DNA of 50,973 nt, from contig JAZPZG010000075.1 in NCBI GenBank assembly GCA_045544575.1, forward strand, positions 1 to 50,973, given 5' to 3'. The translations under genes and the position numbers were made by a program. This document shows, piece by piece, positions 21,065 through 47,684 of this stretch (position 1 is its first letter; every line of letters begins with the position of its first letter). The DNA comes from Clostridia bacterium (GTDB lineage Bacteria > Bacillota > Clostridia > UBA1212). The notes beneath the pieces are model-generated. The model ran no database searches, was not told where the DNA came from, and saw only the letters and a program-made list of their open reading frames with translations.

Positions 21065-21138
21065 TGTTTAAATTCTTTTGTGCCTAAACATCTGTATTTC
21101 GGGACATAATATTGAAAAAAACAGGATGTGATTTTTCT

Positions 21139-30477: not shown

Positions 30478-30632
30478 GTATTGCACCTCGCTAAATATTA
30501 GTTGGTAATATACTATAATATATTTCCTTTTTTGTCAAATCAAACCTTGCAGAGAAAGTGTATTTTACTTTTTGTCTGGTTTGTTTTACATTAAACTAAT
30601 TGTAGCGTGTATACAATATAATTTAAAGTTCA

Positions 30633-30661
30633 TTGACTTTGCAACTAGTATGTTTTATAAT
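30633..30661 (+). promoter_or_regulatory. Promoter TTGACT-N17-TATAAT for the CitC-like fusion gene
   Basis: Hexamers at 30633-30638 and 30656-30661; GGAG RBS before ATG 30736. Confidence 0.7.
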
Positions 30662-30735
30662 ATCGCATATATTTCTACATTGAATGTAGACTTGTAAATA
30701 ATAAATTATATATTTATTGCTATAGGAGATTTTAT

Positions 30736-32646
30736 ATGAGCGATTCATTAATCAGTAGTAATGACCAATATACCAAAGAAACCTTACTTGCGGATTTTGC
30801 CAAATTTGGCGGATATGGTATTCCATTTCCACTGATTTTAAGTGAAGTTTACAAGAATAAGAGAATATTTTTGTTTTCAACTGAAGAAATATGTAATGAC
30901 TTTTATACGTTGTTCGGTAGCTTTTCTTTTTACAAGCAAGCCAATATTACATTTTGTTCTGACAAACCTTTTGTTTACAATAAAAATCATTTATGGTTAC
31001 AATTTGTAAACATTGAGAATATAGCTTTCAAAAGCTCTGATTTTGTTCTCTTGTTTGATCTTGATGTCAAGGCTGCTACTGTTGAGAAAATTAAGGCTAA
31101 AGGCGTTTCTAACGTTTGTTTGATTAAAAAAAGCGTTTTAAACGCTCTGTTCCATTATGCAACTGCAATACGACCGGTAAAACAATTATTGCAAAAATAC
31201 CCAAAGCTTCAGGTGATTTTGACAGACAATCGAGTTCCGCCTTCTCCGGAAAAACGTACCGATTGGGAACGATACATTGCAGAAAATTCCCTTACGCGAG
31301 AAAAGATGGTTGCGAAGTTAAAAGCCGAAGAGTATCCTTATCCTAAAGGTTTGTATAATGAAAGCTACTCAGCAGCTGATATCGTAGAAATGAACACAGT
31401 TCCTAAAAGAGTCTGTGATTACCGAGGCGTTGTATCATTATCTGACTTTGAAAGTAAATACATTAACGTCAGCAACGGAATGAGAAATACAGCTTACCAA
31501 CCTCAAGAATATGATAGAACAATACATATTTTTGGTGGATGCGGTTGGTTTGGTGTGGGTCATGCAGATCACGAAACGTTTCCTTCACAACTTCAACTTT
31601 TGCTAAACAAGAATGTTCCCGAAGAGAAAATTATTGTGAGAAATCGTGCTAGCTTTATTTGGGGAAAACATGATATTATGTGGTATAGCATAAACAGCAC
31701 GGATTTTTCGGAAAATGATATTGTAGTAATTCCCGGAAATTACAAATGGGCAAGATTTTATTATTCAGACATTCCAAACATGCATTACGTTGATATCTCC
31801 GAAAGAGAAGATAGCGATGGTGAAGTTTTTGTTGATGCTTGGCATCCCAGTGAAAGTGGTCTGAAGTCATATGCAAGGAATTTGTTTGATTTTCTGAAGG
31901 AAAATAATTTTTTACGGGGACAACCTACCATTGATGCGAAATTCGTAGAAACAAAGCAAATAAAAGAATATGGTGTTCCTGCTTTTTCAAAAATCTCTTC
32001 GTCTATGCTTTCAAACGAACACATGAAAGCACTTGATGAATATTTGCAGGACATAAAAAAACTAAGACCTCGTATCGGATCTATCGTTATGAATTGTAAT
32101 CCATTTACGTTAGGTCATAGATATCTCATTGAATATGCATCAAAACAAGTAGAGCATCTTTATGTTTTTGCGGTTGAAGAAGATAAGTCGTTCTTTCCGT
32201 TTAAAGATAGAATTGAGCTTATACGAAAAGGCACAGCAGATCTTGAAAATGTTACTGTATTGCCGAGTGGAAAATTTATTATTTCTTCAATTACTTTTAC
32301 AGACTATTTTGGTAAGCAAGAGCTTCAGGACAAAACTATTGATCCCAGTTTGGATGTTTCATTGTTTGGAAAACATATTGCTCCTGCTCTTGGTATTAAT
32401 GTTAGATTTGCAGGTGAGGAACCCCTTGATAAGGTTACATTGCAATATAATCGCACTATGGAAAAAATTCTGCCACAGTATGGCATTGAATTCGTAGTGG
32501 TACAAAGAAAAGTGGAATCGGGGGCTGTTATCAGTGCAAGTAGAGTCAGAAAGCTTCTCAATGAACAAAATTTTGCCGAAATAAAAAGAATTGTTCCAAT
32601 TACTACGTATGAATATTTGTTGAAGAATTATAAGATAGACAAATAG
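30736..32646 (+). CDS. 636-aa fusion: unknown N-terminus + Cys-type SGNH-like domain + CitC-like nucleotidyltransferase (adenylating) domain
   Basis: IFGGC (C269) and DAWHP (D367/H370) in SGNH-like spacing; C-terminal GSIVMNCNPFTLGH...FAVEED...RFAGEEP...ISASRVR is the citrate-lyase-ligase C-terminal domain; CitC N-terminal GNAT part absent. Confidence 0.8.
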   Translation: MSDSLISSNDQYTKETLLADFAKFGGYGIPFPLILSEVYKNKRIFLFSTEEICNDFYTLFGSFSFYKQANITFCSDKPFVYNKNHLWLQFVNIENIAFKSSDFVLLFDLDVKAATVEKIKAKGVSNVCLIKKSVLNALFHYATAIRPVKQLLQKYPKLQVILTDNRVPPSPEKRTDWERYIAENSLTREKMVAKLKAEEYPYPKGLYNESYSAADIVEMNTVPKRVCDYRGVVSLSDFESKYINVSNGMRNTAYQPQEYDRTIHIFGGCGWFGVGHADHETFPSQLQLLLNKNVPEEKIIVRNRASFIWGKHDIMWYSINSTDFSENDIVVIPGNYKWARFYYSDIPNMHYVDISEREDSDGEVFVDAWHPSESGLKSYARNLFDFLKENNFLRGQPTIDAKFVETKQIKEYGVPAFSKISSSMLSNEHMKALDEYLQDIKKLRPRIGSIVMNCNPFTLGHRYLIEYASKQVEHLYVFAVEEDKSFFPFKDRIELIRKGTADLENVTVLPSGKFIISSITFTDYFGKQELQDKTIDPSLDVSLFGKHIAPALGINVRFAGEEPLDKVTLQYNRTMEKILPQYGIEFVVVQRKVESGAVISASRVRKLLNEQNFAEIKRIVPITTYEYLLKNYKIDK

Positions 32647-32739
32647 AGAATCCTGGAAGTCAATCTGAATATGTTGCAGTGCAAATAATTGTGTGGTAAA
32701 CTTCTCGGATTTATAAAAAATTTGCTTGTTATCTATGGC

Positions 32740-32840
32740 TGAGTGACAGTTGCTGCTGCTCAGCCAGTTCACTTTCAAGCATTCCCTGTAGGGGATTGTC
32801 TAACAAGATTTGAATGCTTTCAACTCTTTGGAAGTAGCTG
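32740..32840 (-). mobile_element. Possible IS256-like transposase scar
   Basis: Minus-strand frame reads ...ESIQILLDNPLQGMLESELAEQ, loosely like IS256 N-termini (DIQ..L...IQ.MLEAE..E); no start and no terminal repeats found. Confidence 0.2.
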
Positions 32841-33038
32841 CTTGCGGTATTACTTTTCCGCTGAGAGCGCAGGGGTGGGCGAAGTCTTTGGTCATATCGA
32901 CAATGCGATTATTGGTACAGTTTGATTTGCAAAAGAGAAAAAGAGTCAATGAGCATTTGTTGACAAATGTGGTAGTTTATTGTAGCGTAGTAATGGTTTC
33001 TGTTGGTATATTAGTGCAGTAATGGAAGGGGTTTTGAA

Positions 33039-34409
33039 TTGGAAGCCGAGATGGGGTTGCAGAAAAAAGAAACGACACATATTTCAATCATGGGTTCCTG
33101 TGTTCCAAGAGATACCTTTGAAATTTGTAAAAATGCCGACGGGTATTTTGCTGGGTTGGAAAATTCGTATACTGTAGATCGATTTATACAAAGTATAAGT
33201 CCTGTTTCAGCGATTTTTGATCCTATAGATGAGACTACATCAAAGCAGCTGATATGTGAAGCTGAAGCATCAGGTGCTGCTAATTTTGATAAAAGAAATT
33301 TTATGCTTGATGTGACCAAAACATGGCGTAATTATCTATCTGAAGTTAAGTCGGATTGGTTAATTATTGATCTTTCAACAGCACGACTTCGGTTGTTTGA
33401 ATTTGAAAATAGTATTATAACAGAAGGGTCGTTGGTAAGAATACTAGATAAGCATAAGGCACTTTCAGAGGATTCACTTTTATCTAAGCTGAAGTTGTTT
33501 AATACAATAGACGTAGCAGAGTGTGATCAAGAATATTTGATAAACGCTTATTCTAGATATTTTGATGAGCTTCTTGCAATTTATCCACAGGAAAAAATAA
33601 TTGTTTTAGGCATAGAACATAATTTTTCTTTTGTTGATGAGGTTCTGTCGAAAGTTGAATTGCTGAGCTATTCCATTAAATATCAACAACAGATCGAGAA
33701 TAATATAATAAATTTTGCTTACTCGTATGCGAAAGAATATATGCCAAGGGCGCATTTTATTGACCCTTTGCCTGTAAGTATATGCGATAGGAGACATAAA
33801 TGGGGGATGATGGGGCTCCATTATATGCCGGATACTTATTTGTACTTTTTTCGTTGTATTGATTATATTACGCATTCTAATGATGATAGGTCTTTTGAAA
33901 AAGAGCATATTATGCAACTGCAAATTGATTTTTCGAAGAAAATGTTTTTAAAGTATTCTGTTATTGCTAACAAAAATTTGGAGGAAGAGAGAAATAAGTT
34001 ATCTTTAAAACATGGTGTTTCTCCCGGTGTATACGTGAAAAATGGAATAACGCTTACGATATCAGATGATTTTTCTTATACGGTGTCAGGTGAAGCTACT
34101 AATGATGTCGTTTTTTATCTAATTTCCTCACATAAAAATCCACTTGGGGGCTGGGCATCAAGAAAAGAGGATACTGAGCCCGGTGTTTATAAGTTCGTGA
34201 CGGGGACAAGAAAAATAGAAGATAAATTTTTTATACAATTATTATTAACGGATAGTATAAACGCGGATAAAAGATGGATAACTGGGGATTTTAAATCTGT
34301 CAAATTTAGAATTCATAACTTATATGATTATAGGTTAGTTAGACTTGTAGTAAGAGCCGGTGTCTCTGTGAACGAAAGAGGTAAGCTTTTTCTTGAGAAA
34401 ATTGAATAG
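33039..34409 (+). CDS. DUF6270-like protein (GSC-motif SGNH/WcbI-like fold) with extra C-terminal domain
   Basis: ISIMGSCVPRD N-terminus, DWLIIDL, WG...LHY..Y.YF pattern recalled from DUF6270; TTG start after GGAAGGGG. Confidence 0.6.
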   Translation: MEAEMGLQKKETTHISIMGSCVPRDTFEICKNADGYFAGLENSYTVDRFIQSISPVSAIFDPIDETTSKQLICEAEASGAANFDKRNFMLDVTKTWRNYLSEVKSDWLIIDLSTARLRLFEFENSIITEGSLVRILDKHKALSEDSLLSKLKLFNTIDVAECDQEYLINAYSRYFDELLAIYPQEKIIVLGIEHNFSFVDEVLSKVELLSYSIKYQQQIENNIINFAYSYAKEYMPRAHFIDPLPVSICDRRHKWGMMGLHYMPDTYLYFFRCIDYITHSNDDRSFEKEHIMQLQIDFSKKMFLKYSVIANKNLEEERNKLSLKHGVSPGVYVKNGITLTISDDFSYTVSGEATNDVVFYLISSHKNPLGGWASRKEDTEPGVYKFVTGTRKIEDKFFIQLLLTDSINADKRWITGDFKSVKFRIHNLYDYRLVRLVVRAGVSVNERGKLFLEKIE

Positions 34410-34493
34410 AAATGTTGAGTAATTATTTTGTCGTTTCATAAGTTGCAGGGGTGTGCAATATAGAGATTGATAAAAACATTATTTGCTGAGCTA

Positions 34494-34522
34494 TGGACTT
34501 TTTGCGTATTGTGTAGTATAAT
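34494..34522 (+). promoter_or_regulatory. glf operon promoter TGGACT-N17-TATAAT
   Basis: Hexamers at 34494-34499 and 34517-34522. Confidence 0.55.
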
Positions 34523-34567
34523 GAAAATGTCTTATTATATCAAGGTATGACAGAAAGGATAAGTGCT

Positions 34568-35659
34568 ATGTACGATTATTTGATTGTCGGCGCAGGTCTC
34601 TACGGAGCGGTTTTTGCACACGAACTTACAAAACGTGGAAAAAGTTGTCTGGTTATTGATAAAAGAGATCATATTGCGGGTAATATTTATACCGAAAATG
34701 TCTCGGGAATAAATGTACACAAGTACGGTGCTCACATATTCCACACCTCGGATAAAGAAGTTTGGGATTATGTTAATCAGTTTGCGGAATTTAACAACTA
34801 TATTAACAGTCCGATTGCTGTATATAAGGACGAGCTTTATAATTTACCTTTTAACATGAACACATTTTCTAAAATGTGGGGCGTGAGGACTCCTGCTGAG
34901 GCTAAGGAGAAAATTGCGCAGCAGGTTGCGGAGCTTGATATAAAGGAACCTCAAAATCTTGAAGAACAGGCACTGAGTCTTGTGGGTACGGATGTATATA
35001 CGAAGCTTGTTAAGGGCTATACTGAAAAACAGTGGGGCCGTGACTGTAAGGAGCTTCCCGCTTTTATCATAAAGCGCCTTCCTTGCCGTTTTATATATGA
35101 TAATAACTACTTCAACGACCGCTACCAAGGTATTCCTATCGGCGGATACACTGCCATGGTAGAAAAAATGCTGGAAGGCATTGAAGTTAGACTTAATACG
35201 GATTATTTTGAACTTATAAAGGAACAGCCCGATATTGCGAAAACTACGGTTTACACAGGCTGTATAGATGAGTTTTTCGGTTATCAATTGGGCGCACTTC
35301 AGTATCGCAGTGTTCACTTTGAAACAGAAGAACTTGATATGGATGATTATCAGGGCAATGCCGTGGTAAACTATACAGAGCGCGAGGTTCCGTATACCAG
35401 AATTATTGAGCATAAGCATTTTGAATTCGGTAAGCAGCCCACTACGGTTATCAGCCGTGAATATTCCGCGGAATGGAAGCCCGGAATGGAGCCGTATTAC
35501 CCTGTAAACGATGCAGAAAACGGTGCTCTTTACGAAAAGTATAAAAAACTTGCCGAAGAAAAAGGAAACGTTATTTTCGGCGGACGCCTCGGTCAATACC
35601 GCTATTACGATATGGACAAGGTAATACGTGCAGCATTAGATGATCTTAAGACTATTTAA
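34568..35659 (+). CDS. glf: UDP-galactopyranose mutase
   Basis: IVGAGLYG, HKYGAHIFHT, YTEKQWG, YQGIP, EPYYP, GRLGQYRYYDMD. Confidence 0.97.
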   Translation: MYDYLIVGAGLYGAVFAHELTKRGKSCLVIDKRDHIAGNIYTENVSGINVHKYGAHIFHTSDKEVWDYVNQFAEFNNYINSPIAVYKDELYNLPFNMNTFSKMWGVRTPAEAKEKIAQQVAELDIKEPQNLEEQALSLVGTDVYTKLVKGYTEKQWGRDCKELPAFIIKRLPCRFIYDNNYFNDRYQGIPIGGYTAMVEKMLEGIEVRLNTDYFELIKEQPDIAKTTVYTGCIDEFFGYQLGALQYRSVHFETEELDMDDYQGNAVVNYTEREVPYTRIIEHKHFEFGKQPTTVISREYSAEWKPGMEPYYPVNDAENGALYEKYKKLAEEKGNVIFGGRLGQYRYYDMDKVIRAALDDLKTI

Positions 35660-35686
35660 TAACTATATTCAGAGAGGGGAACAGTG

Positions 35687-36862
35687 ATGAATTCACCGAA
35701 GGTTTCAGTTGTAGTTCCTTGCTACAACGTGGAAAAGTATTTGAGACAGTGTCTGGACAGCATTGTAAATCAAACTCTTAAGGAGTTGGAAATTATTTGC
35801 GTAAACGATGGCTCGAAGGACTCCACTTTATCAATAATTGAAGAATATGCAGCAAAGGATTCGCGCTTTAAAATAATAGACAAGCCCAACGCCGGTTACG
35901 GTGACAGTATGAACCGCGGCTTTGACATGGCTACCGGTGAGTATATCGGAATTATTGAGTCTGACGACTATGCAGAGCTTGATATGTTTGAAAAGCTCTA
36001 CAATACTGCGAAAAAGCATGAGCTCGATGTTGTTAAGAGCGGTTTCTTCTTCTATTGGTCGAAGAAGGGTGAAAAAAACATTCCAAACCCGATTGCATCA
36101 AAGACTACCAGCAGCCGTACCTTCTGCCCCGTAAATGCATTTAAGTCCAAGATGGAAATGGTGGACTTTTTCAATATAAAGCCTACCATATGGTCAGCTA
36201 TTTACCGTAAGGATTTTATAAGACAGAACAATATCAGATTTAACGAAACCCCCGGTGCATCATATCAGGATGCCAGCTTTAACTTTAAGGTGTGGACCTG
36301 TGCAAAGAGAGTACGTCTTTTAAAGGAGTGCTTCCTCCATTACAGACAGGATAACGAATCATCTTCCATAAATTCCCCCGGAAAGGTTTACTGCATCTGT
36401 GATGAATACGACGAGATGGAGCGTTTCCTCAATACACGTCCCTTAGAGAAGGGAATATTGGAGCCTGTTATGGTACGTATTAAATACGACAGCTATAACT
36501 GGAACTACGAAAGACTTTCCGAACCTCTTCAGGCTGAATTCATATTGCGTTTCAGCAAGGATTTTGAAAAGCACCTTACCGACGGCTCACTTCAAAAAGA
36601 ATATTTTGAGTGGTATAAGTGGACAAGCGTTCATCAGGTAATAGACGATCCCGAAGAATATCACAAGGCGCGTGTGCTTGCAAAAAAGGGTGAGCTTACA
36701 TCTTCTTCTAAAAAGAGTGAGGCCCAAGGAAATGACGGCAAGCCTGACGAGAAACGTTCTCTCGGAAACAGAATTGACGGCGGTATCAATTGCATCCGTG
36801 ACCATGGTTTTTTCTATACCGTGAGACTCGGATTTGCAAAGATATTTAGGAGGGGTAAGTAA
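35687..36862 (+). CDS. GT2 family glycosyltransferase
   Basis: VSVVVPCYNVEKYL, VNDGSKD, IIESDDY, PGASYQD. Confidence 0.92.
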   Translation: MNSPKVSVVVPCYNVEKYLRQCLDSIVNQTLKELEIICVNDGSKDSTLSIIEEYAAKDSRFKIIDKPNAGYGDSMNRGFDMATGEYIGIIESDDYAELDMFEKLYNTAKKHELDVVKSGFFFYWSKKGEKNIPNPIASKTTSSRTFCPVNAFKSKMEMVDFFNIKPTIWSAIYRKDFIRQNNIRFNETPGASYQDASFNFKVWTCAKRVRLLKECFLHYRQDNESSSINSPGKVYCICDEYDEMERFLNTRPLEKGILEPVMVRIKYDSYNWNYERLSEPLQAEFILRFSKDFEKHLTDGSLQKEYFEWYKWTSVHQVIDDPEEYHKARVLAKKGELTSSSKKSEAQGNDGKPDEKRSLGNRIDGGINCIRDHGFFYTVRLGFAKIFRRGK

Positions 36863-37827
36863 TGAACGGATGTCCGGTAAAGGTTTCAGTAATAGTTCCT
36901 GTTTATAATGTCGAAGAGTATTTAAGCACTTGCCTTAACAGCTGTATAAATCAAACTCTTTACGATATTGAAATAATTTGCGTAAATGACGGTAGTACAG
37001 ATGGATCTGCCGCTATCTTGGAGCGATTTGCTCAGGTGGATAACAGAATTACCGTTATCCACAAGAAAAACGGTGGTCTTTCTTCTGCCAGAAACGCAGG
37101 TATGAGAGTCGCAAACGGAAAGTTTGTTATGTTTCTTGATTCTGACGACTATCTTTCCCCGAATGCCTGTGAGCGAGTTTGGTGTGAAAGCCTTGAAGGC
37201 GATACCGATATTGTGATTTTCGGAACCAATATTTTCCCTACAAAGCCTTATGCAAGTGATTGGCACCGCAGAGTTTTAGAGGTTTGGACTCATAGATACT
37301 ACAGTTTTACTCCTCACGTTCTTTTCGGCGAGCCCAGCGCAAAACCTTTCGTTTGGAGACAAGCTTTTTCAAAGAAGCTCCTTGACAAGTCCAAACTTGA
37401 GTTTGACGAGAGCGTAAAGTACGGCGAGGATACTGTATTTCAGCTTGAAATGTTCCCCCATGCCGAGAATTTTGCGTTTATTGAGGACCGATTGTATAAC
37501 TACCGTTGGTACAGGCAAGGCTCGCTAATGTCTACTCTTCGTGATGATATCGACAAGAGAGTCAGTGAGCACATCAGAATGTGTACCAATATTACGGAAT
37601 ACTGGAAGAAACAGGGTTGGCTTAAAGAATACGGCAGAGAGTTTACGGAGTGGACTCTTGAATTTATTGTTCCGGATATTAAGTCAAAGGGTGTAAAGAA
37701 AGCTAACGAGCATTTCAAGGCGTATGGAAATATGCTTGATACCTATAATCTCAGACAGTATATTAAGCACGTTTCTCCGTATTTCCAAAACTACGTGCTG
37801 ATGCTTCCTAATAGCTTTTATAATTGA
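36862..37827 (+). CDS. GT2 family glycosyltransferase
   Basis: VSVIVPVYNVEEYL, NGGLSSARN, FLDSDD, YGED. Confidence 0.92.
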   Translation: MNGCPVKVSVIVPVYNVEEYLSTCLNSCINQTLYDIEIICVNDGSTDGSAAILERFAQVDNRITVIHKKNGGLSSARNAGMRVANGKFVMFLDSDDYLSPNACERVWCESLEGDTDIVIFGTNIFPTKPYASDWHRRVLEVWTHRYYSFTPHVLFGEPSAKPFVWRQAFSKKLLDKSKLEFDESVKYGEDTVFQLEMFPHAENFAFIEDRLYNYRWYRQGSLMSTLRDDIDKRVSEHIRMCTNITEYWKKQGWLKEYGREFTEWTLEFIVPDIKSKGVKKANEHFKAYGNMLDTYNLRQYIKHVSPYFQNYVLMLPNSFYN

Positions 37828-37851
37828 TTAAATTAATTAAAGGATGATTTT

Positions 37852-40284
37852 ATGGAAAATACTATAAAAAAAGTACCGCATGACCGGTGTACCGGTTGCG
37901 GAGCGTGTTACAACAAATGCCCTGCAGATGCGATTCGTATGAATTATGATAATGAGGGCTTTCTTTATCCTGAAGTAACGGACGCTTGTATTAATTGCGG
38001 ACTTTGCACGACTGCTTGCCCGGCCCTTAATCCTCCGTATTTTTATGAAAAGCCTATGTCATATGCCGTCTGGGCTTCGGATGAAACGCGTCTTAAAAGT
38101 TCTTCCGGAGGAATGTTCACGATTCTTGCCGAATACGTTATAAAAAACGGAGGTGCAGTGTGCGGTGCTGCCTATGCAGAGGATTTCCAAACCGTTCACC
38201 ATATTTGGGCAGAAAACTTAGAGGAACTTGCTCTGCTTCGCGGCTCTAAATACGTACAAAGTGACACAGAGCAGACTTATAAGAAGGCTAAGGAGCTTCT
38301 TAAGGATGGGCGTATGGTGCTGTACACCGGTTGTCCTTGCCAGATAGCAGGCCTTTATAAATTCTTGGGAAATGACCATGAAAATCTGATTACAGCTGAC
38401 TTGGTTTGTCATGGTGCAAATTCGGTTACGGCTTATCAATCTTTCATTAAAGAATTTTCTGAAGATCAGGAAATTGAGAAGGTTGATTTTCGTGATAAAA
38501 AGTATTACCCTTGGTCAACGCCCACAGTAGTTTATCTCAAGAACGGAACTGTTAAAAAAGCCGGTTGGAACGAAAGCACTTGGAATACCGGATTTTTGGA
38601 AGGTGTCATCAACAGGAAAAACTGCCACGATTGTCCGTATGCAAGAGAAGAACGTATCGCTGATATAACGTTGGCTGACTGCTGGCAGGTTCACCGCATA
38701 AATCCGAAATTTGATGATAGAAAAGGAACGTCCCTTGTTTTAGTAAATTCTGCTAAGGGAAGGGCTTTGTTTAAAGAACTTAAACCTGCAATGAAGCTTT
38801 GTGAGCCTGTTCCGCTTGAAGAAATGAAAAAGTATAACGGTCAGCTGCGAGGTCCGGCCAAGATGCATCCTTCGAGAAAATTTTTCTTTTCACATCTGGA
38901 TAAGCTCGGTTACCACAAGGCTTTATGGTACGGACGAGGTATGCGTTTTGATATAGGTATTGTGGGATGGTGGTTTGCATCTAATTACGGCAGTTCTCTT
39001 ACCTACTACGCACTGGGCAAGATACTTGAAAACATGGGAAAGCAGATTTTGCTTGTGCCTATTGCAAAGGTCGATAATACGCCTTGGGAGCCTGAAACAC
39101 AAATTACTATAGATTTTCTTTCTAAATATTTTCATGTGGGGAAAGATCGTTCTTTTGACAAAATGAGCGAGTTTAACCGCTTCTGTGATTCATTTATGCT
39201 TGGATCTGACCAAATGTGGACGGGTGACAATACCAATTTGGTGGGTTATACTTTCTTTCTTGATTTTGTTGACAAAGATAAGAAAAAAATTGCTTTTTCC
39301 ACGTCTTTCGGTCACAGTGATTTCTATGCACCTGAGGATGTTTGTGCCACTGCAGGAGACTACTTAAGCAGGTTTGATGCTATAAGTGTTCGTGAGAAAA
39401 GCGGCGTTGACGTATGCAGAAATCGTTTTGGTCTTGAGGCTGAGCAAATTATAGATCCTGTATTCCTTTGCGAAACAGAGGAGTATGATCATCTTGCTGA
39501 TTCCACTGATGAGGCAAAGGAAAGAAAGTATTTGCTTTGCTATATTCTTGATCCGACACCGGAAAAAGAGGCTGCGGCAAAAGCTATTGCGGAGCATGAA
39601 GGCTTGGAGATTTTGACGGTTCTTGATTTAAAGACACATGACACTGCAAAAAACGACTGGCACACGGGCACGGTATTGCCTCAGATTAGTGCTGATAAGT
39701 TTCTCCATTATATAAAGAATTGTTCGTATTTGCTTACAGATTCACACCATGGTGCTTGCTTCGGTATTATTTACGAGAGACCGTATGCTGCAATGGTTAA
39801 TGCCAATCGTGGAATAACACGCTTTGAAACTGTGGCAGATGCCTTTGGTCTTCATGATCGTCTTTACACTGACCCCATGGAGATTTGTACGTCTGACAGA
39901 CCATATGCTCCCATTGATTATGGACGTGTCGGAGAGTGCATTGCAAGAGAAAAAGAAAGGGCATTTAAGTGGTTGGAAAATGCTCTCAACTGTCCTGTTA
40001 AGGCGGCTCGTGATACACTTCGTACTATTTCTGTAGATGGTTCGCGTAAAATTATGGGAGTTGAGGGTCAAATAGCTGCACTTGAGAAAAGAGTTTCTGA
40101 AAGTGAGACCGCAAATGCGAAAGAGTTGGCTGAGCTTTGCAGCTGTGTAAAAAAGCTTTCAGCGGATATTGAACAATTGATAGCACTTCAAAAACAATCT
40201 TCTGAAACAGAGCATAAGCCTGTTGAACCGGAGCCGATTGAGAAAACTTCGCTTTGGGACAAAGTCAAAAAGAAAATGAAGTAG
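37852..40284 (+). CDS. Fusion: 2x4Fe-4S + FrhB-like + polysaccharide pyruvyltransferase + coiled-coil tail (paralog 2)
   Basis: CTGCGACYNKCP, CINCGLCTTACP, LRGSKYVQS, GCPCQIAG, LADCW; NYGSSL, LGSDQMW, AISVRE, LLTDSHHG. Confidence 0.9.
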   Translation: MENTIKKVPHDRCTGCGACYNKCPADAIRMNYDNEGFLYPEVTDACINCGLCTTACPALNPPYFYEKPMSYAVWASDETRLKSSSGGMFTILAEYVIKNGGAVCGAAYAEDFQTVHHIWAENLEELALLRGSKYVQSDTEQTYKKAKELLKDGRMVLYTGCPCQIAGLYKFLGNDHENLITADLVCHGANSVTAYQSFIKEFSEDQEIEKVDFRDKKYYPWSTPTVVYLKNGTVKKAGWNESTWNTGFLEGVINRKNCHDCPYAREERIADITLADCWQVHRINPKFDDRKGTSLVLVNSAKGRALFKELKPAMKLCEPVPLEEMKKYNGQLRGPAKMHPSRKFFFSHLDKLGYHKALWYGRGMRFDIGIVGWWFASNYGSSLTYYALGKILENMGKQILLVPIAKVDNTPWEPETQITIDFLSKYFHVGKDRSFDKMSEFNRFCDSFMLGSDQMWTGDNTNLVGYTFFLDFVDKDKKKIAFSTSFGHSDFYAPEDVCATAGDYLSRFDAISVREKSGVDVCRNRFGLEAEQIIDPVFLCETEEYDHLADSTDEAKERKYLLCYILDPTPEKEAAAKAIAEHEGLEILTVLDLKTHDTAKNDWHTGTVLPQISADKFLHYIKNCSYLLTDSHHGACFGIIYERPYAAMVNANRGITRFETVADAFGLHDRLYTDPMEICTSDRPYAPIDYGRVGECIAREKERAFKWLENALNCPVKAARDTLRTISVDGSRKIMGVEGQIAALEKRVSESETANAKELAELCSCVKKLSADIEQLIALQKQSSETEHKPVEPEPIEKTSLWDKVKKKMK

Positions 40285-40431: not shown

Positions 40432-41205
40432 TTATTTTTTTTGCTCCTTCTCGGCTTCAATTCGTTTCATTTCAGCTACGTATGCATTGCATACGGTTGT
40501 TGCATCGCCTTGCATTCTTGCTTCACCCTTGTCAATCCAAATTGCATGAGTGCAAAGTCTTTTTACCTGTTCCATTGAGTGTGACACAAAGAAAAGAGTC
40601 GTTCCGTTTGCAAGAAGCTCCTTCAAGCGCTTTTCGCATTTTTTTCGGAAGTTCATATCACCTACGGAGAGAATTTCATCTACGATGAGGATATCGGGCT
40701 TTACCATAGTTGCAATTGAAAATCCCAGTCGAGCTCGCATACCGGAAGAAAAGTTTTTGAGCGGAGAATCGAGAAAATCACGAATTTCCGCAAAGTCTAC
40801 AATTTCATCAAAATGCTCCTTCATAAAGCTTTCGCTGTGTCCGAGGACGCAGCCGTTTAAGAAAATATTTTCACGTGCTGTCATTTCCTGATCAAAACCG
40901 GCACCGAGTTCTATCAATGGTGCGATATTTCCTCTCACGAGAATTGAACCCTTATATGGCTTAAGGATGCCGCTTATAGCTTTCAGCATTGTGGATTTTC
41001 CGGAACCGTTAACGCCGATAAGCCCCCAGGCCTCGCCTTGGTGTACTTGAAAGGACACGTTTTTTATTGCTAAAAACTCCTGAAACATCAGCTCTCTTTT
41101 TAGGAGCTTTATTACGTATTCTTTTAGATTGTCAACCTTTTGATTGGCAAGATTAAATCGGATGGTAACGTCGCGCACGTCTATTACCAATTTTTTCACG
41201 TCCAT
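40432..41205 (-). CDS. wzt: Polysaccharide ABC exporter ATP-binding subunit (no C-terminal carbohydrate-binding module)
   Basis: GVNGSGKST, LIELGAGFD, FSSGMRARL, ILIVDE, VSH; 257 aa. Confidence 0.93.
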   Translation of the reverse strand: MDVKKLVIDVRDVTIRFNLANQKVDNLKEYVIKLLKRELMFQEFLAIKNVSFQVHQGEAWGLIGVNGSGKSTMLKAISGILKPYKGSILVRGNIAPLIELGAGFDQEMTARENIFLNGCVLGHSESFMKEHFDEIVDFAEIRDFLDSPLKNFSSGMRARLGFSIATMVKPDILIVDEILSVGDMNFRKKCEKRLKELLANGTTLFFVSHSMEQVKRLCTHAIWIDKGEARMQGDATTVCNAYVAEMKRIEAEKEQKK

Positions 41206-41235
41206 ATTATTCCTCCTATGCAGGCTTATTACAAA

Positions 41236-42063
41236 TTAAACGTACAGTATGAACTTATCTTCATTCTTTCTGAAAAGCAAAGAGCCTATCAACAAAGAAA
41301 GCAGTGCAACGACCCAGCCTGCGATTACGTACTTTGCCTCGGGTGCTTGTCCGATATATATAATATCTCTGAACTGCGAAATATAGAAATACATGGGGTT
41401 AAAGTGTGTTATAAACCATGCAACCTTCTTGGGAAGTATCTCTATCGTATAGAAAAGAGGTGTCATATAGAGCCACGCTGTTGTAATTGCATTATAGATG
41501 TATTGTATATCTCTGAAGAAAACGTTTGCTTGTGCGAGGAACAGTCCGAGTCCTACACAGAACAGATAGAGCGGTATCAATACAAACGGAAACAGGAGCG
41601 CATACCACGTAATTTGGGCTTGCGTTGCAATGATTACTATTATGAGAGCTCCCAATGAGAAGGCGAGGTCAACCAGTCCTCCTGTAATCTTTGATATAGT
41701 GAATATGTGCTTTGGCACGTGTGTCTTCTTTAAAAGAGAACCGCTTGCCGAAACAGAAGATATAGCTTGATGTGTAGAGTGGTTCATGAAATTAAAGAGC
41801 AATTGTCCGCAAAAGAGGTAGAGCGGATAGTTCGTTATGTTACGGCTGAACATTTTAGAAAAGACGATTGACATAACTATCATTATCAGCAACGGATTTA
41901 AAACGCTCCACACGTAGCCCAGAAAGCTGCGGCGGTATTTTAATTTTATGGTTTTTGAAACAAGTAGTTTTAGTAAATCTCTATATTCCCAAAGCTCAGT
42001 AATCATAAGCTTTTTTTTCTTTGTATTTATGAGCTTATCTTGCTTTTTTTCAGAATATTCCAT
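41236..42063 (-). CDS. wzm: Polysaccharide ABC exporter permease
   Basis: KLKYRRSFLGYVWSVLNPLL, FRDIQYI, YMTPLFY, NPM. Confidence 0.93.
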   Translation of the reverse strand: MEYSEKKQDKLINTKKKKLMITELWEYRDLLKLLVSKTIKLKYRRSFLGYVWSVLNPLLIMIVMSIVFSKMFSRNITNYPLYLFCGQLLFNFMNHSTHQAISSVSASGSLLKKTHVPKHIFTISKITGGLVDLAFSLGALIIVIIATQAQITWYALLFPFVLIPLYLFCVGLGLFLAQANVFFRDIQYIYNAITTAWLYMTPLFYTIEILPKKVAWFITHFNPMYFYISQFRDIIYIGQAPEAKYVIAGWVVALLSLLIGSLLFRKNEDKFILYV

Positions 42064-42071
42064 AATATCTC

Positions 42072-43097
42072 CTAATTAAATTCGTGATTTCCTTTTATTT
42101 TTCGATAGAGCTTGGTAGAAATGATTTTATCCAACACAGCTTTTTTTATGCCTAAGCGATTCATCAGCCTCAGCATACCGTATTGTTTCTTTACGAGCTC
42201 TGCAACCATCGGTATTCCGCCTGATACTTGCGTCATTATCATTTCTGCCTGCAGTCTGCCCGCATTTCTGTCTTTTTCTGCGAGAAGAAGCGTGGTAAGG
42301 TAACTTATCAATAAAATCTTTGTTTTCAGGCATACGTGCTTTTGAGCTTCTTTGTCCGTTACGGTTTTGTATTCCGCAATAAAACGTTCCAAAACTGCTT
42401 CTGTATGTTCTTTCCTTTTCAGTTTGCTTTGTTCCGAAACACTTTGACTAAGGTCGCCGATTCTGTATACGTAAATAAAAATATTCAACGGCAAAACAGA
42501 TTTTGCAAAGCAACAAGGGAACGTAGAATACTCGTGGTCCTCGTAAAACACCCTCTCTGTGAGCCTGTAATTATGCATTTTATAGAATTCGGTTTTGTAA
42601 GTGATTCCGTGAAGCGTCAGTCCTCTGTCAAAATCTCCGAAACTTTCGTTTATTTGTTCAATAGAGTACTTGGCTCCGAATCTTTGCGGGTAGGTCATCC
42701 ATTTCTTTATTTCGCCTGTGGCAATGTTTTTCGTATAGTGGTGTGTGAGAACAACGTCAGCATCAATTTTTTCCAGAGTCTCAATAAAAAGCGGCAAATT
42801 TTCCGTAACAATCGTATCGTCTGCATCGATTACTTTAAAATACTTTCCGCTTGCTTCAAGACAACCTGTATTAAGAGATCCACCGTGACCTCTGTTTTCC
42901 TGCGAAATTACTTTCACAGTTTGTGGATATCTTTTCGCAAAATCAAGTGCTATATCCTCTGTTTTATCGGTTGAACCATCGTTTACGATAATTATTTCCA
43001 CCGAAAGGAGTGTTTTTTCATTCAGCAATGATGATATGCAATTTTTTAAATACTGCTCACTGTTGTAAGCGGGTATTATAAAGGACAGTACCTTCAT
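42072..43097 (-). CDS. GT2 family glycosyltransferase
   Basis: LSFIIPAYNS, VNDGSTD, NRGHG, VIDADD, FYED. Confidence 0.9.
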   Translation of the reverse strand: MKVLSFIIPAYNSEQYLKNCISSLLNEKTLLSVEIIIVNDGSTDKTEDIALDFAKRYPQTVKVISQENRGHGGSLNTGCLEASGKYFKVIDADDTIVTENLPLFIETLEKIDADVVLTHHYTKNIATGEIKKWMTYPQRFGAKYSIEQINESFGDFDRGLTLHGITYKTEFYKMHNYRLTERVFYEDHEYSTFPCCFAKSVLPLNIFIYVYRIGDLSQSVSEQSKLKRKEHTEAVLERFIAEYKTVTDKEAQKHVCLKTKILLISYLTTLLLAEKDRNAGRLQAEMIMTQVSGGIPMVAELVKKQYGMLRLMNRLGIKKAVLDKIISTKLYRKIKGNHEFN

Positions 43098-43099
43098 TA

Positions 43100-43900
43100 T
43101 TATTTCCTTTCGGCTTTTACCTGTTTTGAAATTTTGTTTTCTTTTATACCTTTAAGCGTGGCACAAAATGCCTTTAACATAGAAATATCGTTTTTGTAAA
43201 GGCTGTGTTTTCTTATTACGTAATAAAAGGCATATATTACTGCTAACGGTAACCCTAAAATGTATCGGGTCGTTGCCCCTCTGTTTATAAAAAATTCTTC
43301 GTTAAAGCCTTTAAACCACGTTGAGCTTTGCTGACCTACCGAAGCAATTTCTTCGGGACAGTAATAAATTTTAAGTCCGTTCCGCTCGCAGTCAAGAAGA
43401 AATTTCAATTCTTCTTCTGCACCGTTGCCGCTTCCCGCGCCTAAGTGTATATCAAAGCGAGTTAATGAATCTGTAATACTGTCTCTGCGAAATGATATCT
43501 GCCATGAGCTGACTTTCATCGTTTTCGGAAACTTAATAGGGGTTACCTCATTTCCGAGTGTAGCGGGGCGGTTTACCATCTTAAATATTATTACGTCCGC
43601 ATCGGGTAAGCTTTTATATGCCTTAAGTATTTTTTCTTCATAGTCAGGAACGAAAACCTCGTCATCATCGCACAGCATACATATATCGGCGCGTGAAGTA
43701 GATATTGCTTTATTGCGGCTTTTTGATAGTCCTCTGTCACGAGTACTGAGAAGCCTGAACGTTCCGTTTTGTGAAGGGTATTCGCAGTAGCTGTCAACGT
43801 CGCATTGGTTAATTATCAGAACATCGCCTGTAAGTCCGGAACGCTCCGCAATTGAGGCATCCTCTTGGAACATACAGGACATGAGAATTTCAAGTTTCAT
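43100..43900 (-). CDS. GT2/GT-A fold glycosyltransferase
   Basis: GLSKSRN, LCDDD, FDIHLGAGS..AEE. Confidence 0.85.
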   Translation of the reverse strand: MKLEILMSCMFQEDASIAERSGLTGDVLIINQCDVDSYCEYPSQNGTFRLLSTRDRGLSKSRNKAISTSRADICMLCDDDEVFVPDYEEKILKAYKSLPDADVIIFKMVNRPATLGNEVTPIKFPKTMKVSSWQISFRRDSITDSLTRFDIHLGAGSGNGAEEELKFLLDCERNGLKIYYCPEEIASVGQQSSTWFKGFNEEFFINRGATTRYILGLPLAVIYAFYYVIRKHSLYKNDISMLKAFCATLKGIKENKISKQVKAERK

Positions 43901-44658
43901 TTTTGCCTGCCTTTAAACAAGTATTTTTTTACGCCGTTAAGGGCGTAGCTTGCAAAGCACAGCAAGGACTTTATCATGCCGAAGCCCATGTAACGATATG
44001 CCTTAAAGGTCATTGCAGCGGATTTAAGCTTTCCGCCGGACTTTCCTGTATTGCTCAATCTGTATTTTAGCAGAGGAAGGTTTATACCGCAAGCACTTTT
44101 ATATTTTTGCAAGACCTCAAGCCACATTATATAGTCCTCATGGCTGTCTTCATGATGCATGGGAAATTCCAAAGCAACCTCTCTCTTGATAAGCACGGAA
44201 GAGCAGCTGATCTGATTGTGCTTTAAAAGTTCTTTGTAGGTTATACATTCCTTCACCGGAATAAAATGCTTTAAGCTTTCGCCCTTTGGTGAAACAAGCT
44301 CTCTTGCCGTACAGCAAAGCACACAGCCGCTTTTTGTTATTGCTTCAAGCTGAAGTTTAAGCTTATCTTCTGACCAGAAATCGTCACCGTCTAAAAAGGC
44401 AATGTATTGGCCGCTTGCAAGCTTTACGGCTTTGTTGCGTGTTTCGGCAGCGCCGAGATTTGTCTCGTTTTTATAAAAAATAAAGCCGTCTATTCCGCAA
44501 TACTGCTGTATGATTTCGGGCGTGGAATCCGAGGAGCAGTCATCAATTACTATTATTTCCTTTTCCACGTCCTGTGACAGGGCGGACTCAATAGACCGGG
44601 ATATATATTCGGCGCAATTATATGCAGGAATTACTACGGAAATAAGGGGCTTACTCAT
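43897..44658 (-). CDS. GT2 family glycosyltransferase
   Basis: ISVVIPAYN, IDDCSSD, FLDGDDFW, HEDY. Confidence 0.9.
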   Translation of the reverse strand: MSKPLISVVIPAYNCAEYISRSIESALSQDVEKEIIVIDDCSSDSTPEIIQQYCGIDGFIFYKNETNLGAAETRNKAVKLASGQYIAFLDGDDFWSEDKLKLQLEAITKSGCVLCCTARELVSPKGESLKHFIPVKECITYKELLKHNQISCSSVLIKREVALEFPMHHEDSHEDYIMWLEVLQKYKSACGINLPLLKYRLSNTGKSGGKLKSAAMTFKAYRYMGFGMIKSLLCFASYALNGVKKYLFKGRQK

Positions 44659-47657: not shown

Positions 47658-47684
47658 CGTTTTAATTCTTAGGGAGGATATTTT

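Follow-up and report, generated by a model that had tools for sequence, protein, structure and literature searches.

In gut microbes, phage adsorption, immune recognition and colonisation all depend on the acyl groups that surface glycans carry and, to our knowledge, the known routes by which glycans are acylated all begin with acetyl-CoA or with a phosphopantetheinyl carrier. In the D-alanylation carried out by the Dlt system, DltA performs the adenylation, DltC offers a carrier thiol, DltB is an MBOAT protein and DltD is SGNH-like; an ATP-activated acid thus passes through a thioester and an SGNH-type protein to become an ester on a cell-wall polymer. The adenylase belongs to the ANL superfamily and the carrier is phosphopantetheinyl; a membrane channel is part of the system, which operates on the outer side of the membrane. 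The SGNH O-acyltransferases of the PatB/OatA group (PatB, the C-terminal domain of OatA, AlgX/AlgJ, CASD1 and DltD-like proteins) likewise work outside the cytoplasm. Their nucleophile is a Ser, and their acyl group comes from a membrane partner of the AT3/MBOAT type, which takes it from acetyl-CoA or a carrier protein. Citrate lyase ligase, CitC (EC 6.2.1.22, TIGR00124), acylates the prosthetic-group thiol of a carrier protein. A further relevant protein is CgnD (8a2n), described as a slow Ser-type peptide hydrolase of the RiPP (crocagin) pathway (PMC10070186).

The window analysed here, that is, the whole stretch of 50,973 nucleotides, contains an open reading frame in which elements of these systems are combined. 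Its C-terminal part is homologous to CitC, keeps the T-x-G-H and ISASRVR motifs together with nearly every conserved active-site residue, and presumably shares the chemistry, from carboxylate and ATP to acyl-AMP and on to a thiol. Unlike CitC, it has neither a GNAT-like half nor the CitD carrier, CitE/F and CitX/G as partners, and it is fused to an SGNH-like domain within a glycan locus. The middle domain, whose predicted fold weakly resembles that of SGNH enzymes, can be aligned with the PatB/OatA group at blocks I, III and V and, by analogy, may likewise pass a small acyl group on to a glycan by a ping-pong mechanism. In contrast with that group it is predicted to be cytoplasmic, is much reduced, carries Cys in 83% of the family members and comes with its own ATP-dependent activating domain. 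Compared with Dlt, one soluble polypeptide would do all steps, with a cysteine replacing the carrier. The protein is best read as a self-contained cytoplasmic ATP-dependent acyltransferase decorating the cell-wall or capsular glycan of an ABC-transporter-dependent locus, by a carrier-free relay from acid and ATP through acyl-AMP and a Cys thioester to a sugar; assignment and relay are each given a probability of about 0.5. No description of the family or its architecture was found in the literature, in agreement with what the sequence-only reading of this DNA had supposed.

Architecture of the 636-residue protein

The sequence-only reading had proposed a CitC-like domain joined to a cysteine-type SGNH domain, and the start codon, ribosome-binding site, stop codon (32644-32646) and every motif that it quoted were found in place (Table 1). 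The upstream gene (29734-30486) lies on the minus strand, so that a promoter is needed ahead of the open reading frame. The candidate site, TTGACT-17-TATAAT, has 11 of 12 matches and is the top site in 30300-34600; the claim that the gene has its own consensus promoter stands to that extent, but the region as a whole has just as many promoter-like sites as shuffling leads one to expect, and the assignment is suggestive only. The highest 19-residue hydropathy of the protein is 1.22, from which neither a transmembrane helix nor a signal peptide is expected. The full-length AF2 model reached a pLDDT of 90.5 and a pTM of 0.70. Since a fold search with the whole protein returned PPAT matches alone, all from the C-terminal domain, the middle domain was modelled separately.

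Table 1. Coordinates of the features discussed, as positions in the window
Feature	Position	Strand	Remarks
Whole open reading frame	30736..32646	+	636 aa, ATG start; three-module protein P0001, predicted soluble and cytoplasmic
Promoter-like site TTGACT-17 nt-TATAAT	30633..30661	+	some 75 nt ahead of the ATG
Ribosome-binding site AGGAGA	30724..30729	+	6-nt spacer before ATG; read from the sequence
N-terminal alpha/beta domain, residues 1-220	30736..31395	+	AF2-confident fold
Beta-meander (222-258) and divergent SGNH-like domain (259-400)	31399..31935	+	profile, fold search, conservation
Cys269 codon TGC	31540..31542	+	putative nucleophile for the acyl group, placed where SGNH enzymes have Ser
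His370 codon CAT	31843..31845	+	block V His of the putative Cys-His-Asp set
Linker, residues 401-446	31936..32073	+	conserved YG(I/V)P motif and helix; homologous to CitC ~106-142
CitC-type HIGH nucleotidyltransferase (adenylating) domain, residues 447-628	32074..32619	+	PF08218
Cys454 codon TGT	32095..32097	+	in MNCNPFTLGH, nucleotide-binding loop; fusion-specific
DUF6270 protein, downstream neighbour	33039..34409	+	PF19786, E=6e-18
Rest of the putative operon	34547..40284	+	glf, two GT2 genes, Fer4-FrhB-pyruvyltransferase fusion (37852-40284)
Convergent half of the glycan locus	40432..46093	-	ABC-2 exporter (Wzt/Wzm type), three GT2, initiating sugar-phosphate transferase (Bac_transf)

The N-terminal domain has no Pfam or PDB sequence match, even when a 15-sequence profile is used, and phmmer finds it in about 30 of the 326 family members; others carry different N-termini, including Fer4/FrhB or GT2. 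As the variable part of the family, it is presumably an acceptor-recognition or targeting module. An unassigned N-terminus of about 255 residues had been reported: the absence of a family match was borne out, but the length is closer to 220 residues, as residues 222-258 are part of the SGNH module, in which they make up a conserved beta-meander (D237, G248, R250, T252).

For the middle domain, a single-sequence Pfam search returned nothing and PF00657 gave a weak match in 6 of 28 family members (best E=0.029). When a profile of residues 222-400 was run on PDB sequences, the best three matches were GDSL/SGNH proteins, namely 4rw0 (1e-4), CgnD (8a2n, 4e-4) and 9otv (4e-4), with PatB (7trr, 7tjb) among the weak ones at E ~0.7. 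The separate AF2 model (pLDDT 89.6) matches SGNH hydrolases nearly throughout in Foldseek, with TM values of 0.3-0.48 and CgnD alone at E<1e-3. CgnD is the best structural and second-best sequence-profile match, although a marginal one (E=4e-4, TM 0.43); it shares block I, G-G-S/C-x-x-F-G-x-G, and block V, F-x-D-x-x-H-x-x-x-x-G-N, and differs from the target in having no adenylating partner. The assignment of residues 222-400 as an SGNH-like domain, which had been placed at about 260-390, finds support, though weak, in profile and model, the similarity being remote.

The SGNH blocks can be located as IFGGC (block I), N303 (block III) and D367-A-W-H370 (block V). The block I Ser of G-D-S is absent, with Cys at position 269; in the PDB profile search this Cys269 is aligned to the GDS serine of 9otv, and D367-x-x-H370 to the DxxH (DGIH) of the GDSL enzymes 4rw0, 8a2n and 9otv, which agrees with where the catalytic residues had been placed by eye. 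Across 208 unique homologous domains, position 269 is Cys in 172, Ser in 26 (often as canonical FGDS), Glu in 4 and Gln in 2, and such a Cys/Ser exchange is expected of a covalent-catalysis site. Conservation in the same 208 domains is high for G267 (203), N303 (203), H370 (201), G273 of block II (200) and D367 (172). Cys269, His370 and Asp367 are a putative catalytic set.

The C-terminal domain is matched by PF08218 (Citrate_ly_lig) over the full model, 1-182, with E=1e-67 and 227.8 bits against a cut-off of 20.9. TIGR00124 scores 223.1 bits over model positions 93-331 only, under its equivalog cut-off of 262.1 because the GNAT half is missing, and BLASTP aligns the protein to residues 106-333 of E. 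coli CitC (40% identity, E=5e-47); the C-terminal 230 residues are the portion homologous to CitC, and the GNAT half is absent as had been noted. All four motifs attributed to residues ~445-632 were located: VMNCNPFTLGH at 451-461, VEED at 480-483, RFAGEEP at 557-563 and ISASRVR at 599-605. The signature residues T458, G460, H461, R557, E562, S600 and R605 are all present in this protein, and 244 of 253 fusion domains likewise keep all seven. Conserved in at least 85% of these 253 domains, and mostly the same in six true CitCs, are N453, N455-T458, G460, H461, R492, S517, T520, F521, Y524, K527, D540, R557, G560, E562, P563, T568, Y571, N572, R591, ISAS and R605.

Seven residues conserved in the fusions are unlike the six true CitCs, namely Cys454, Phe489, Ser511, Phe514, Asp536, Ser538 and Asp565, the last of these facing Cys/Ser in true CitC. 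Position 454, aligned to the Phe of the PPAT motif F-D-P-x-T-x-G-H, is Cys in 97% of the 253 fusion domains, whereas all six true CitCs have Ala there. An addition to the earlier reading, Cys454 may be a candidate first thiol of the relay. Covariation between Cys269 and Cys454 was not significant (Ser269 with non-Cys454: 0 observed, ~1.4 expected by chance).

Locus and family

The surroundings of the gene agree with its earlier placement in a glycan locus, two genes upstream of glf: glf is the second gene downstream, and GT2 genes, a pyruvyltransferase fusion, an ABC-2 exporter and Bac_transf lie around the open reading frame (Table 1), which would be the first gene of the putative operon. A paralogue of the Fer4-FrhB-pyruvyltransferase fusion is located upstream, at 25412-27823. 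The DUF6270 gene is possibly co-transcribed with the target, no plus-strand terminator having been found in the 393-bp gap between the two, and DUF6270 is also close to homologues in two other loci (L006, L007). Its product carries an N-terminal I-x-G-S-C and a later D-x-x-H-x-W-G, and it was considered as a homologue of the middle domain. This was rejected at an hhalign probability of <1%, so that the shared G-x-C and D-x-x-H pattern alone remains; among PDB sequences the DUF6270 protein has no relevant match.

Far from being a one-off, the 636-residue protein belongs to a very large family. The family comprises 10,413 representative clusters (50% identity) in many phyla, with carriers in Clostridia, Selenomonadaceae, Treponema, Bacteroidota, Propionibacteriaceae and methanogenic archaea. 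Its spread is patchy, none of 40 relatives carrying the gene, and such a distribution is typical of glycan-decoration genes. The SGNH domain is fused to the adenylating domain in 269 of 326 architectures. Rarer are fusions to Fer4/FrhB, pyruvyltransferase or GT2 modules like those in the target locus. Redox or pyruvyl modules joined to SGNH-CitC account for 8 of the 326 architectures, in several phyla: Fer4/FrhB-SGNH-CitC (L063, L064, L069, L076, L082), FrhB-PyrT-SGNH-CitC (L047, 2043 aa), Nterm-SGNH-CitC-Fer4-FrhB-PyrT (P0143, 1364 aa) and FrhB-PyrT-SGNH (P0129). These module fusions and the fusion-specific Cys454 are new observations of this work. One pair of apparently split genes (L092/L093, a 437-aa SGNH protein followed by a 345-aa CitC protein) is a broken or mis-assembled fusion and no clean split, to judge by a frameshift in the linker that leaves the first strand of the nucleotidyltransferase in another frame.

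By comparing glycan loci with cit operons as settings of the homologues, it was found that most lie in glycan loci and that they are not, as a rule, accompanied by citDEF. Homologues in Treponema, Clostridia and a Methanomethylophilaceae archaeon stand among glycosyltransferases, UDP-glucose dehydrogenase, Glf and ABC-2 exporters. By using insensitive queries, a glycan marker was detected in 40 of 64 long loci and none was seen in the other 24. The expected context thus holds for the majority but not for all, since the closest genomic homologue (56% identity) directly follows pflB-pflA, outside glycan genes. In a set of 150 nearest-neighbour ORFs the most common neighbour family occurs in at most ~9% of loci, and neither a partner gene nor a carrier gene is obligate. 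The clustering of neighbouring genes used coverage filters, single linkage having chained multi-domain proteins.

A putative carrier-free relay and its alternatives

In the proposed mechanism, the CitC-type domain would convert a small free carboxylate and ATP to acyl-AMP and PPi. Of the possible acids acetate is the likeliest, given that the CitC active-site residues are nearly all retained, although the seven fusion-specific differences mean that it need not be acetate. The acyl group would pass to Cys269 of the SGNH-like domain, possibly via Cys454 beside the adenylate, an enzyme cysteine thus standing in for the carrier-protein thiol that true CitC acylates. The SGNH-like domain, with Cys269, His370, Asp367 and an oxyanion site of Asn303/Gly, could then carry out ping-pong transfer, as PatB/OatA-type SGNH transferases do, to a hydroxyl (or amine) of an undecaprenyl-linked glycan or its precursor ahead of export, the variable N-terminal domain choosing the acceptor. 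A predicted soluble cytoplasmic protein fits modification before ABC export. The GT2 and pyruvyltransferase fusions, the absence of a cit partner and the glycan context count for the acyltransferase reading; Glu/Gln at position 269 in 6 of 208 domains, the remote SGNH similarity, the pflB-pflA homologue and the 24 of 64 loci without a glycan marker count against it, and the acetyl-CoA already available in cells counts against a route through ATP.

A more specific form, in which the relay would be free of both carrier and CoA and use two cysteines, is put forward tentatively and remains doubtful. Here the acyl group of acyl-AMP would first go to Cys454, in the role that the prosthetic-group thiol has for citrate lyase, and from there to Cys269 or Ser269 of a minimal SGNH domain for delivery to the sugar. 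In the fusions with Fer4/FrhB and pyruvyltransferase modules, redox chemistry could process the enzyme thioester or the installed group further, which would yield glycan substituents that so far have no linked gene. An SGNH domain of the cysteine type would be unusual, and so would a change from Ala to Cys in the active site of a HIGH nucleotidyltransferase.

If this two-cysteine form is true, glycan acylation would have a third general route, next to the cytoplasmic transferases that depend on acetyl-CoA and to the AT3/MBOAT-plus-SGNH systems, and one with a wide distribution among bacteria of the gut, the rumen and the termite gut as well as methanogenic archaea. By the acyltransferase reading, the family would tie decoration directly to ATP and to the free short-chain acids that are abundant in gut and rumen. 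The hypothesis can be addressed directly with one soluble protein.

The acyl-AMP and the enzyme thioester might also form as described and serve another acceptor: a nucleotide-linked amino sugar (N-acylation), a carrier protein, another protein or a small metabolite. This is unlikely, though several features of the neighbourhoods point its way. DegT aminotransferases (9 loci) and NAD-dependent epimerase/dehydratases (11 loci), which make the kind of amino sugar that requires N-acylation, belong to the most frequent families within 10 kb; AMP-binding and radical SAM enzymes recur near homologues, and the position of the closest homologue in a pflB-pflA operon is outside any glycan locus. However, neither a DegT-type aminotransferase nor a carrier-protein gene was found in the target locus, no single neighbour family goes beyond ~9% of loci, and the GT2 and pyruvyltransferase fusions point to polymer-building machinery.

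Ranked next, and also improbable, is that the adenylated carboxylate sits on the glycan itself, either as a 1-carboxyethyl (lactyl) or pyruvyl group from the neighbouring Fer4-FrhB-pyruvyltransferases or as a uronic acid. The SGNH-like Cys/His site would then turn the glycan-acyl adenylate or thioester into an amide, ester or lactone, or the thioester would undergo FrhB-type reduction as in carboxylic acid reductases. The physical fusion of the SGNH-CitC module to redox and pyruvyl modules in several phyla is consistent with this, as are the two FrhB-PyrT genes that flank the target in the window and the FrhB-PyrT homologues within 10 kb in 13 of ~83 loci. Those fusions are rare, however, most loci have no pyruvyltransferase close by, and the GT2 fusions suggest that fusion may only mirror joint assembly on one polymer. 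In addition, an adenylation site almost identical to that of the acetate-specific CitC favours a small free acid over a polymer-bound one, as the acyltransferase reading supposes.

A very unlikely alternative takes the C-terminal domain as an ordinary nucleotidyltransferase that places AMP or CMP onto a phospho-substrate, as PPAT or TagD does, beside an independent SGNH-like esterase or deacylase. The adenylating domain does match the PPAT fold (TM 0.8 on the target) and gives weak matches to CTP_transf_like and TIGR00125, and SGNH domains are most often hydrolases. Yet it is much closer to CitC (1e-67, 40% identity) than to phospho-substrate nucleotidyltransferases (E ~1e-3) and retains CitC-specific conserved residues, a hydrolase fused to an adenylating domain in so many architectures would be futile, and the fusion-specific active-site Cys454 suits thiol chemistry.

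With regard to citrate lyase, no cit genes lie within the window, as the sequence-only reading had noted for citD/E/F/G/X, and no cit families are found among the 25 commonest of the 150 nearest-neighbour ORFs. CitF and CitD were not found in the rest of the target's own MAG (62% complete), and of 30 other carrier genomes 29 have no CitF at cut-off, so that homologues do not sit with citDEF as a rule. In the tree, the true CitCs form a clade apart from the fusions, with a support of 0.97. The family is now mis-annotated as citrate lyase ligase or left hypothetical, and the name '[citrate (pro-3S)-lyase] ligase' that the JGI annotation pipeline gives to many homologues is what speaks for a divergent but genuine ligase reactivating citrate lyase, a reading that is scarcely tenable against the sub-threshold TIGR00124 score, the missing GNAT half, the separate clade and the missing CitD/CitF. 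As controls, six true CitCs were placed in their own genomes: a plasmid copy in S. equi has no annotated cit neighbour, four of the six (Klebsiella pneumoniae, Melissococcus, Enterococcus and Klebsiella aerogenes) lie beside citD or citDEF, and citC of E. coli heads a citCDEFXG operon with cit regulators adjoining.

An adenylating domain of CitC type

The carboxy-terminal part of the fusion protein is covered by Pfam PF08218 over the full model (residues 447-628, E=1e-67), and by using BLASTP it was found to share 40% identity with E. coli K-12 CitC, the ligase partner of citrate lyase, across CitC residues 106-333 (E=5e-47). The GNAT half of CitC has no counterpart in the target, which agrees with the sequence-only reading, where the CitC nucleotidyltransferase motifs had been noted without that half. 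The NCBIfam model TIGR00124 gave 223 bits over model positions 93-331 only, missing its equivalog cut-off of 262 bits. The full-length AF2 model (pLDDT 90.5, pTM 0.70) resembles phosphopantetheine adenylyltransferases (PPAT) with a TM-score of about 0.8 on the target of the search, a likeness expected for a HIGH-motif nucleotidyltransferase.

As controls, six true CitCs were aligned with 253 unique fusion-type domains. Four of the six adjoin annotated citD or citDEF genes; the E. coli gene is the first of the citCDEFXG operon. No annotated cit gene adjoins the CitC of the S. equi plasmid. Nearly all positions conserved in the fusions are the same in true CitC, including N453, N455-P-F-T458, G460, H461, R492, S517, T520, F521, Y524, K527, D540, R557, G560, E562, P563, T568, Y571, N572, R591, I-S-A-S and R605. 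Such near-identity makes it the economical inference that the family runs the same type of reaction, probably on a similarly small acid. Seven fusion-conserved positions differ: Cys454 (97% of the fusions; Ala in all six CitCs), Asp565 (94%; Cys or Ser in true CitC), Ser511, Phe514, Phe489, Asp536 and Ser538. In alignment Cys454 falls on the Phe of the PPAT loop F-D-P-x-T-x-G-H and, judging by this homology, would sit in the loop lining the nucleotide and substrate site. In a FastTree phylogeny of the domain, the true CitCs form one clade (support 0.97) separate from all fusions.

The SGNH-like middle domain and the amino terminus

When PDB sequences were searched with a profile of residues 222-400, the top three matches were GDSL/SGNH proteins (4rw0, 1e-4; CgnD, 8a2n, 4e-4; 9otv, 4e-4), with further GDSL esterases and PatB lower down. 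In the 9otv alignment, I-F-G-G-C of the target lies over V-L-G-D-S and its D-x-x-H block over D-G-I-H, in line with the earlier placing of Cys269 at the serine position. The AF2 model of this domain alone (pLDDT 89.6, pTM 0.88) gave Foldseek matches that are nearly all SGNH hydrolases (CgnD, CrmE10, AlinE4, 9otv, TesA and acetyl-xylan esterases), with low TM-scores of 0.3-0.48 and E<1e-3 in one match only. A divergent, minimal fold of SGNH-like type describes the domain best. CgnD itself is a slow Ser/His peptide hydrolase (PMC10070186).

A 50-sequence family alignment showed conservation of D237, G248, R250, T252, G267-x-C269, G273, T281, Q287, N303, D328, D367-x-x-H370 and G375. Among 208 unique domains, N303 (203), H370 (201) and G267 (203) are near-invariant. 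Position 269 is occupied by Cys 172 times, by Ser 26 times, by Glu four times and by Gln twice; with Ser, the textbook F-G-D-S often reappears. That Cys and Ser alternate at just the place of the SGNH nucleophile is, among the sequence arguments for covalent catalysis by residue 269, the strongest. Glu occupies the position, as L-G-E/D/N-E-N, in a subgroup of about 1050-1080 aa with PF15711 (ILEI) matches (P0073, P0074, P0080 and P0081); it retains N303, D367 and H370, some members carry a second SGNH-like repeat, and it may be inactive or of different chemistry.

Residues 1-220 form an alpha/beta domain with a confident AF2 fold and gave no match in Pfam or PDB sequences, singly or as a profile; phmmer picked it out in roughly 30 of the family's 326 proteins, and in some longer ones it lies internally. 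Residues 222-258 are conserved across the whole family and belong to the SGNH module, so the part without assignment shrinks from the roughly 255 aa first proposed to about 220. The protein has no hydrophobic segment (top 19-residue hydropathy 1.22) and should thus be cytoplasmic.

The locus and the neighbourhoods of homologues

Features of the window and of homologous loci
Feature	Position	Strand	Remarks
Germination protease	21112-22062
Fer4-FrhB-PS_pyruv_trans protein	25412-27823	+	about 800 aa; 2x[4Fe-4S] ferredoxin, FrhB-like and PS_pyruv_trans parts
Multi-pass membrane protein	29734-30486	-	250 aa; divergent, upstream of target
Sigma-70-like site	30633-30661	+	TTGACT-17-TATAAT; 11/12 matches, best of region
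Target ORF (P0001)	30736-32646	+	636 aa
DUF6270 protein	33039-34409	+
Fer4-FrhB-PS_pyruv_trans paralogue	37852-40284	+	about 800 aa; same three parts
VTC-domain, DUF4956 membrane and Cthe_2159-type carbohydrate-binding proteins	46247-49496	+	just past glycan locus
DUF6270 relative	L006:8334-10022
DUF6270 relative	L007:3049-4557
Closest genome homologue (Clostridia MAG RGIG8568)	L009:6936-11902		fusion gene, then GMP synthase C-terminal fragment
Split family member (Logan contig)	L092:6001-8348		two overlapping genes
Split family member (Logan contig)	L093:2769-5116		two overlapping genes

The target is followed by the DUF6270 gene and then glf, as had been read, two GT2 genes and a Fer4-FrhB-pyruvyltransferase gene. 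Facing these in convergent orientation are a pair of ABC-2 exporter genes, three GT2 genes and one for the initiating transferase (Bac_transf). Together the two halves make up a complete glycan locus of the ABC-transporter-dependent kind, and the host is a spore-forming Firmicute, for which the germination protease is cited. Upstream of the target are the second pyruvyltransferase fusion, AsnA and an alpha/beta hydrolase. The upstream membrane-protein gene, which had no Pfam match and is overlapped by a spurious 144-aa ORF on the opposite strand, is oriented divergently, so the target ORF opens a transcription unit. On inspection, AGGAGA precedes its ATG by 6 nt; no plus-strand terminator-like site was found between it and the next gene. 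The own consensus promoter that had been read is suggestive only: the tabulated site is the best of the region, and sigma-70-like sites there are no more numerous than in shuffled sequence. In the DUF6270 protein and both of its relatives, I-x-G-(S/T)-C-V-x-R-D near the N-terminus is followed farther on by D-x-x-H-x-W-G...H-(Y/F), a G-x-C ... D-x-x-H pattern that the target's middle domain has too. By hhalign the two showed no significant homology (probability below 1%), and a PDB search turned up no relative; DUF6270 may represent a second family of Cys-type SGNH-like proteins that travels with the CitC fusion. Past the glycan locus, the pairing of VTC-domain and DUF4956 proteins is one associated with polyphosphate.

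In the host MAG (1.35 Mb, 87 contigs, 62% complete), neither CitF nor CitD was found, and PF08218 matched the target alone besides a weak cytidylyltransferase-like hit. Across 30 other fusion-carrying genomes, CitF reached the cut-off in one (a partial 35-bit match) and was absent from 28.

All homologues examined through precomputed Pfam stand among glycan genes: GT2 and LicD in a Firmicute; ABC, UDP-glucose dehydrogenase (UGDH), Glf and giant GTs in Treponema; an ABC-2 exporter, with DUF6270 as the next gene, in a Methanomethylophilaceae archaeon; DUF6270, UGDH, GT2 and ABC-2 in a fourth; and pyruvyltransferase, FrhB and sugar nucleotidyltransferases in Ruminiclostridium. The neighbourhood statistics cover 83 non-redundant loci and draw in part on low-sensitivity searches. 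Within 10 kb, the commonest clusters were GT2, NAD-dependent epimerase/dehydratase (11), DegT aminotransferase (9), ABC ATPase (8), ATP-grasp (7), aldo-keto reductase (AKR), FrhB and AMP-binding enzymes. Of the 64 loci that are 12 kb or longer, 40 had a glycan marker, the few marker queries being insensitive. The Pfam census of the two nearest ORFs (150 proteins, 78 loci) revealed no dominant partner and no cit family among its 25 commonest: GT2 6, AKR 4, and PS_pyruv_trans, FrhB and ABC 3 each. Radical SAM was the most frequent (7), some with SPASM, and some may be PFL-activating-type, as in L009. Most loci have the expected glycan setting. An exception is L009 (56% identity), where the gene follows pflA of a pflB-pflA operon at a distance of 2 nt and no glycan cluster is obvious around it. 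The pfl-encoded enzyme there makes formate and acetyl-CoA.

A putative acylation relay, its rivals and the family

True CitC makes acetyl-AMP and hands the acetyl group to the thiol of its carrier's prosthetic group. In the fusion family, by contrast, carrier and GNAT half are gone, Cys454, lacking in true CitC, stands in the adenylation site, and, unlike in ordinary SGNH enzymes, Cys269 takes the nucleophile position. These data fit the relay of the sequence-only reading, to which, as a whole, a probability of about 0.5 is given. In the simplest scheme, a small acid and ATP would yield an acyl-AMP, from which a thioester would form on Cys269, perhaps via Cys454; with the help of His370/Asp367 the acyl group would then move to a hydroxyl or amine on a sugar of the lipid-linked polymer, in the cytoplasm and ahead of ABC export. 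Members with Ser269 retain Cys454 in 47 of 47 cases and those without Cys454 retain Cys269 in 8 of 8; double loss was seen in none, against about 1.4 expected by chance, which is not significant.

The same acyl chemistry on an acceptor other than the polymer, for example a carrier or a nucleotide amino sugar, appears unlikely. A little less probable is that a glycan-borne carboxylate is activated, tied to the pyruvyl or lactyl chemistry of fused or neighbouring FrhB-pyruvyltransferase modules. Homologues of the window's pyruvyltransferase/FrhB genes occur in 13 of the 83 loci. On the model of ferredoxin-dependent vinyl reductases, the FrhB part of the window's two proteins may convert an enolpyruvyl ether into a lactyl ether. 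SGNH-CitC is carried by 269 of 326 unique proteins with the middle domain, and its rare larger fusions are informative, with partner modules of the same kind as the window's two Fer4-FrhB-PS_pyruv_trans genes: Fer4/FrhB-SGNH-CitC in five proteins from Riflebacteria, Roseburia, Lentisphaerae and two Bacteroidota, with the FrhB part but no pyruvyltransferase (L063, L064, L069, L076 and L082), and, with the full module and in other phyla than the host's, Fer4-FrhB-pyruvyltransferase-...-SGNH-CitC (L047, 2043 aa), Nterm-SGNH-CitC-Fer4-FrhB-pyruvyltransferase (P0143, 1364 aa) and Fer4-FrhB-pyruvyltransferase-SGNH (P0129). Four further proteins are GT2-...-SGNH-CitC. Plain nucleotidyl transfer beside an unrelated esterase is very doubtful, and a true CitC can practically be dismissed.

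The component domains are of known kinds. No description is known of their combination, of a Cys in the place of the SGNH nucleophile or of the switch from Ala to Cys within the CitC site. A literature search found no paper on the family or its architecture, and public annotations read citrate lyase ligase, adenylyl/cytidylyltransferase family protein or hypothetical. The chance is real that glycans are acylated by this family along a third general route.

More than 4,296 relatives were recovered by word-indexed search, mostly spanning the last 78% of the query. An exhaustive run of the middle-domain HMM over 1.84 billion cluster representatives yielded 10,413 proteins with E<=1e-3, of which 2,344 reach E<=1e-10 and 315 reach E<=1e-30. 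Species-representative genomes hold at least 586 loci. The taxa include Clostridia, Lachnospiraceae, Oscillospiraceae, Selenomonadaceae, Treponema, Propionibacteriaceae, Coriobacteriales, Bacteroidota, Campylobacteraceae, Lentisphaerae, Desulfarculales, Riflebacteria and methanogenic archaea, mostly from gut, rumen or termite gut. Distribution is patchy: at E<=1e-20 the gene is missing from all 40 relatives searched, which belong to the same genus, family or order. In L092 and L093 a member is split into 437-aa SGNH and 345-aa CitC parts by a frameshift in the linker; the identical break in two samples points to a real pseudogene or phase variant, or to a common assembly error. Their CitC part bears an additional C-terminal extension of about 165 aa.
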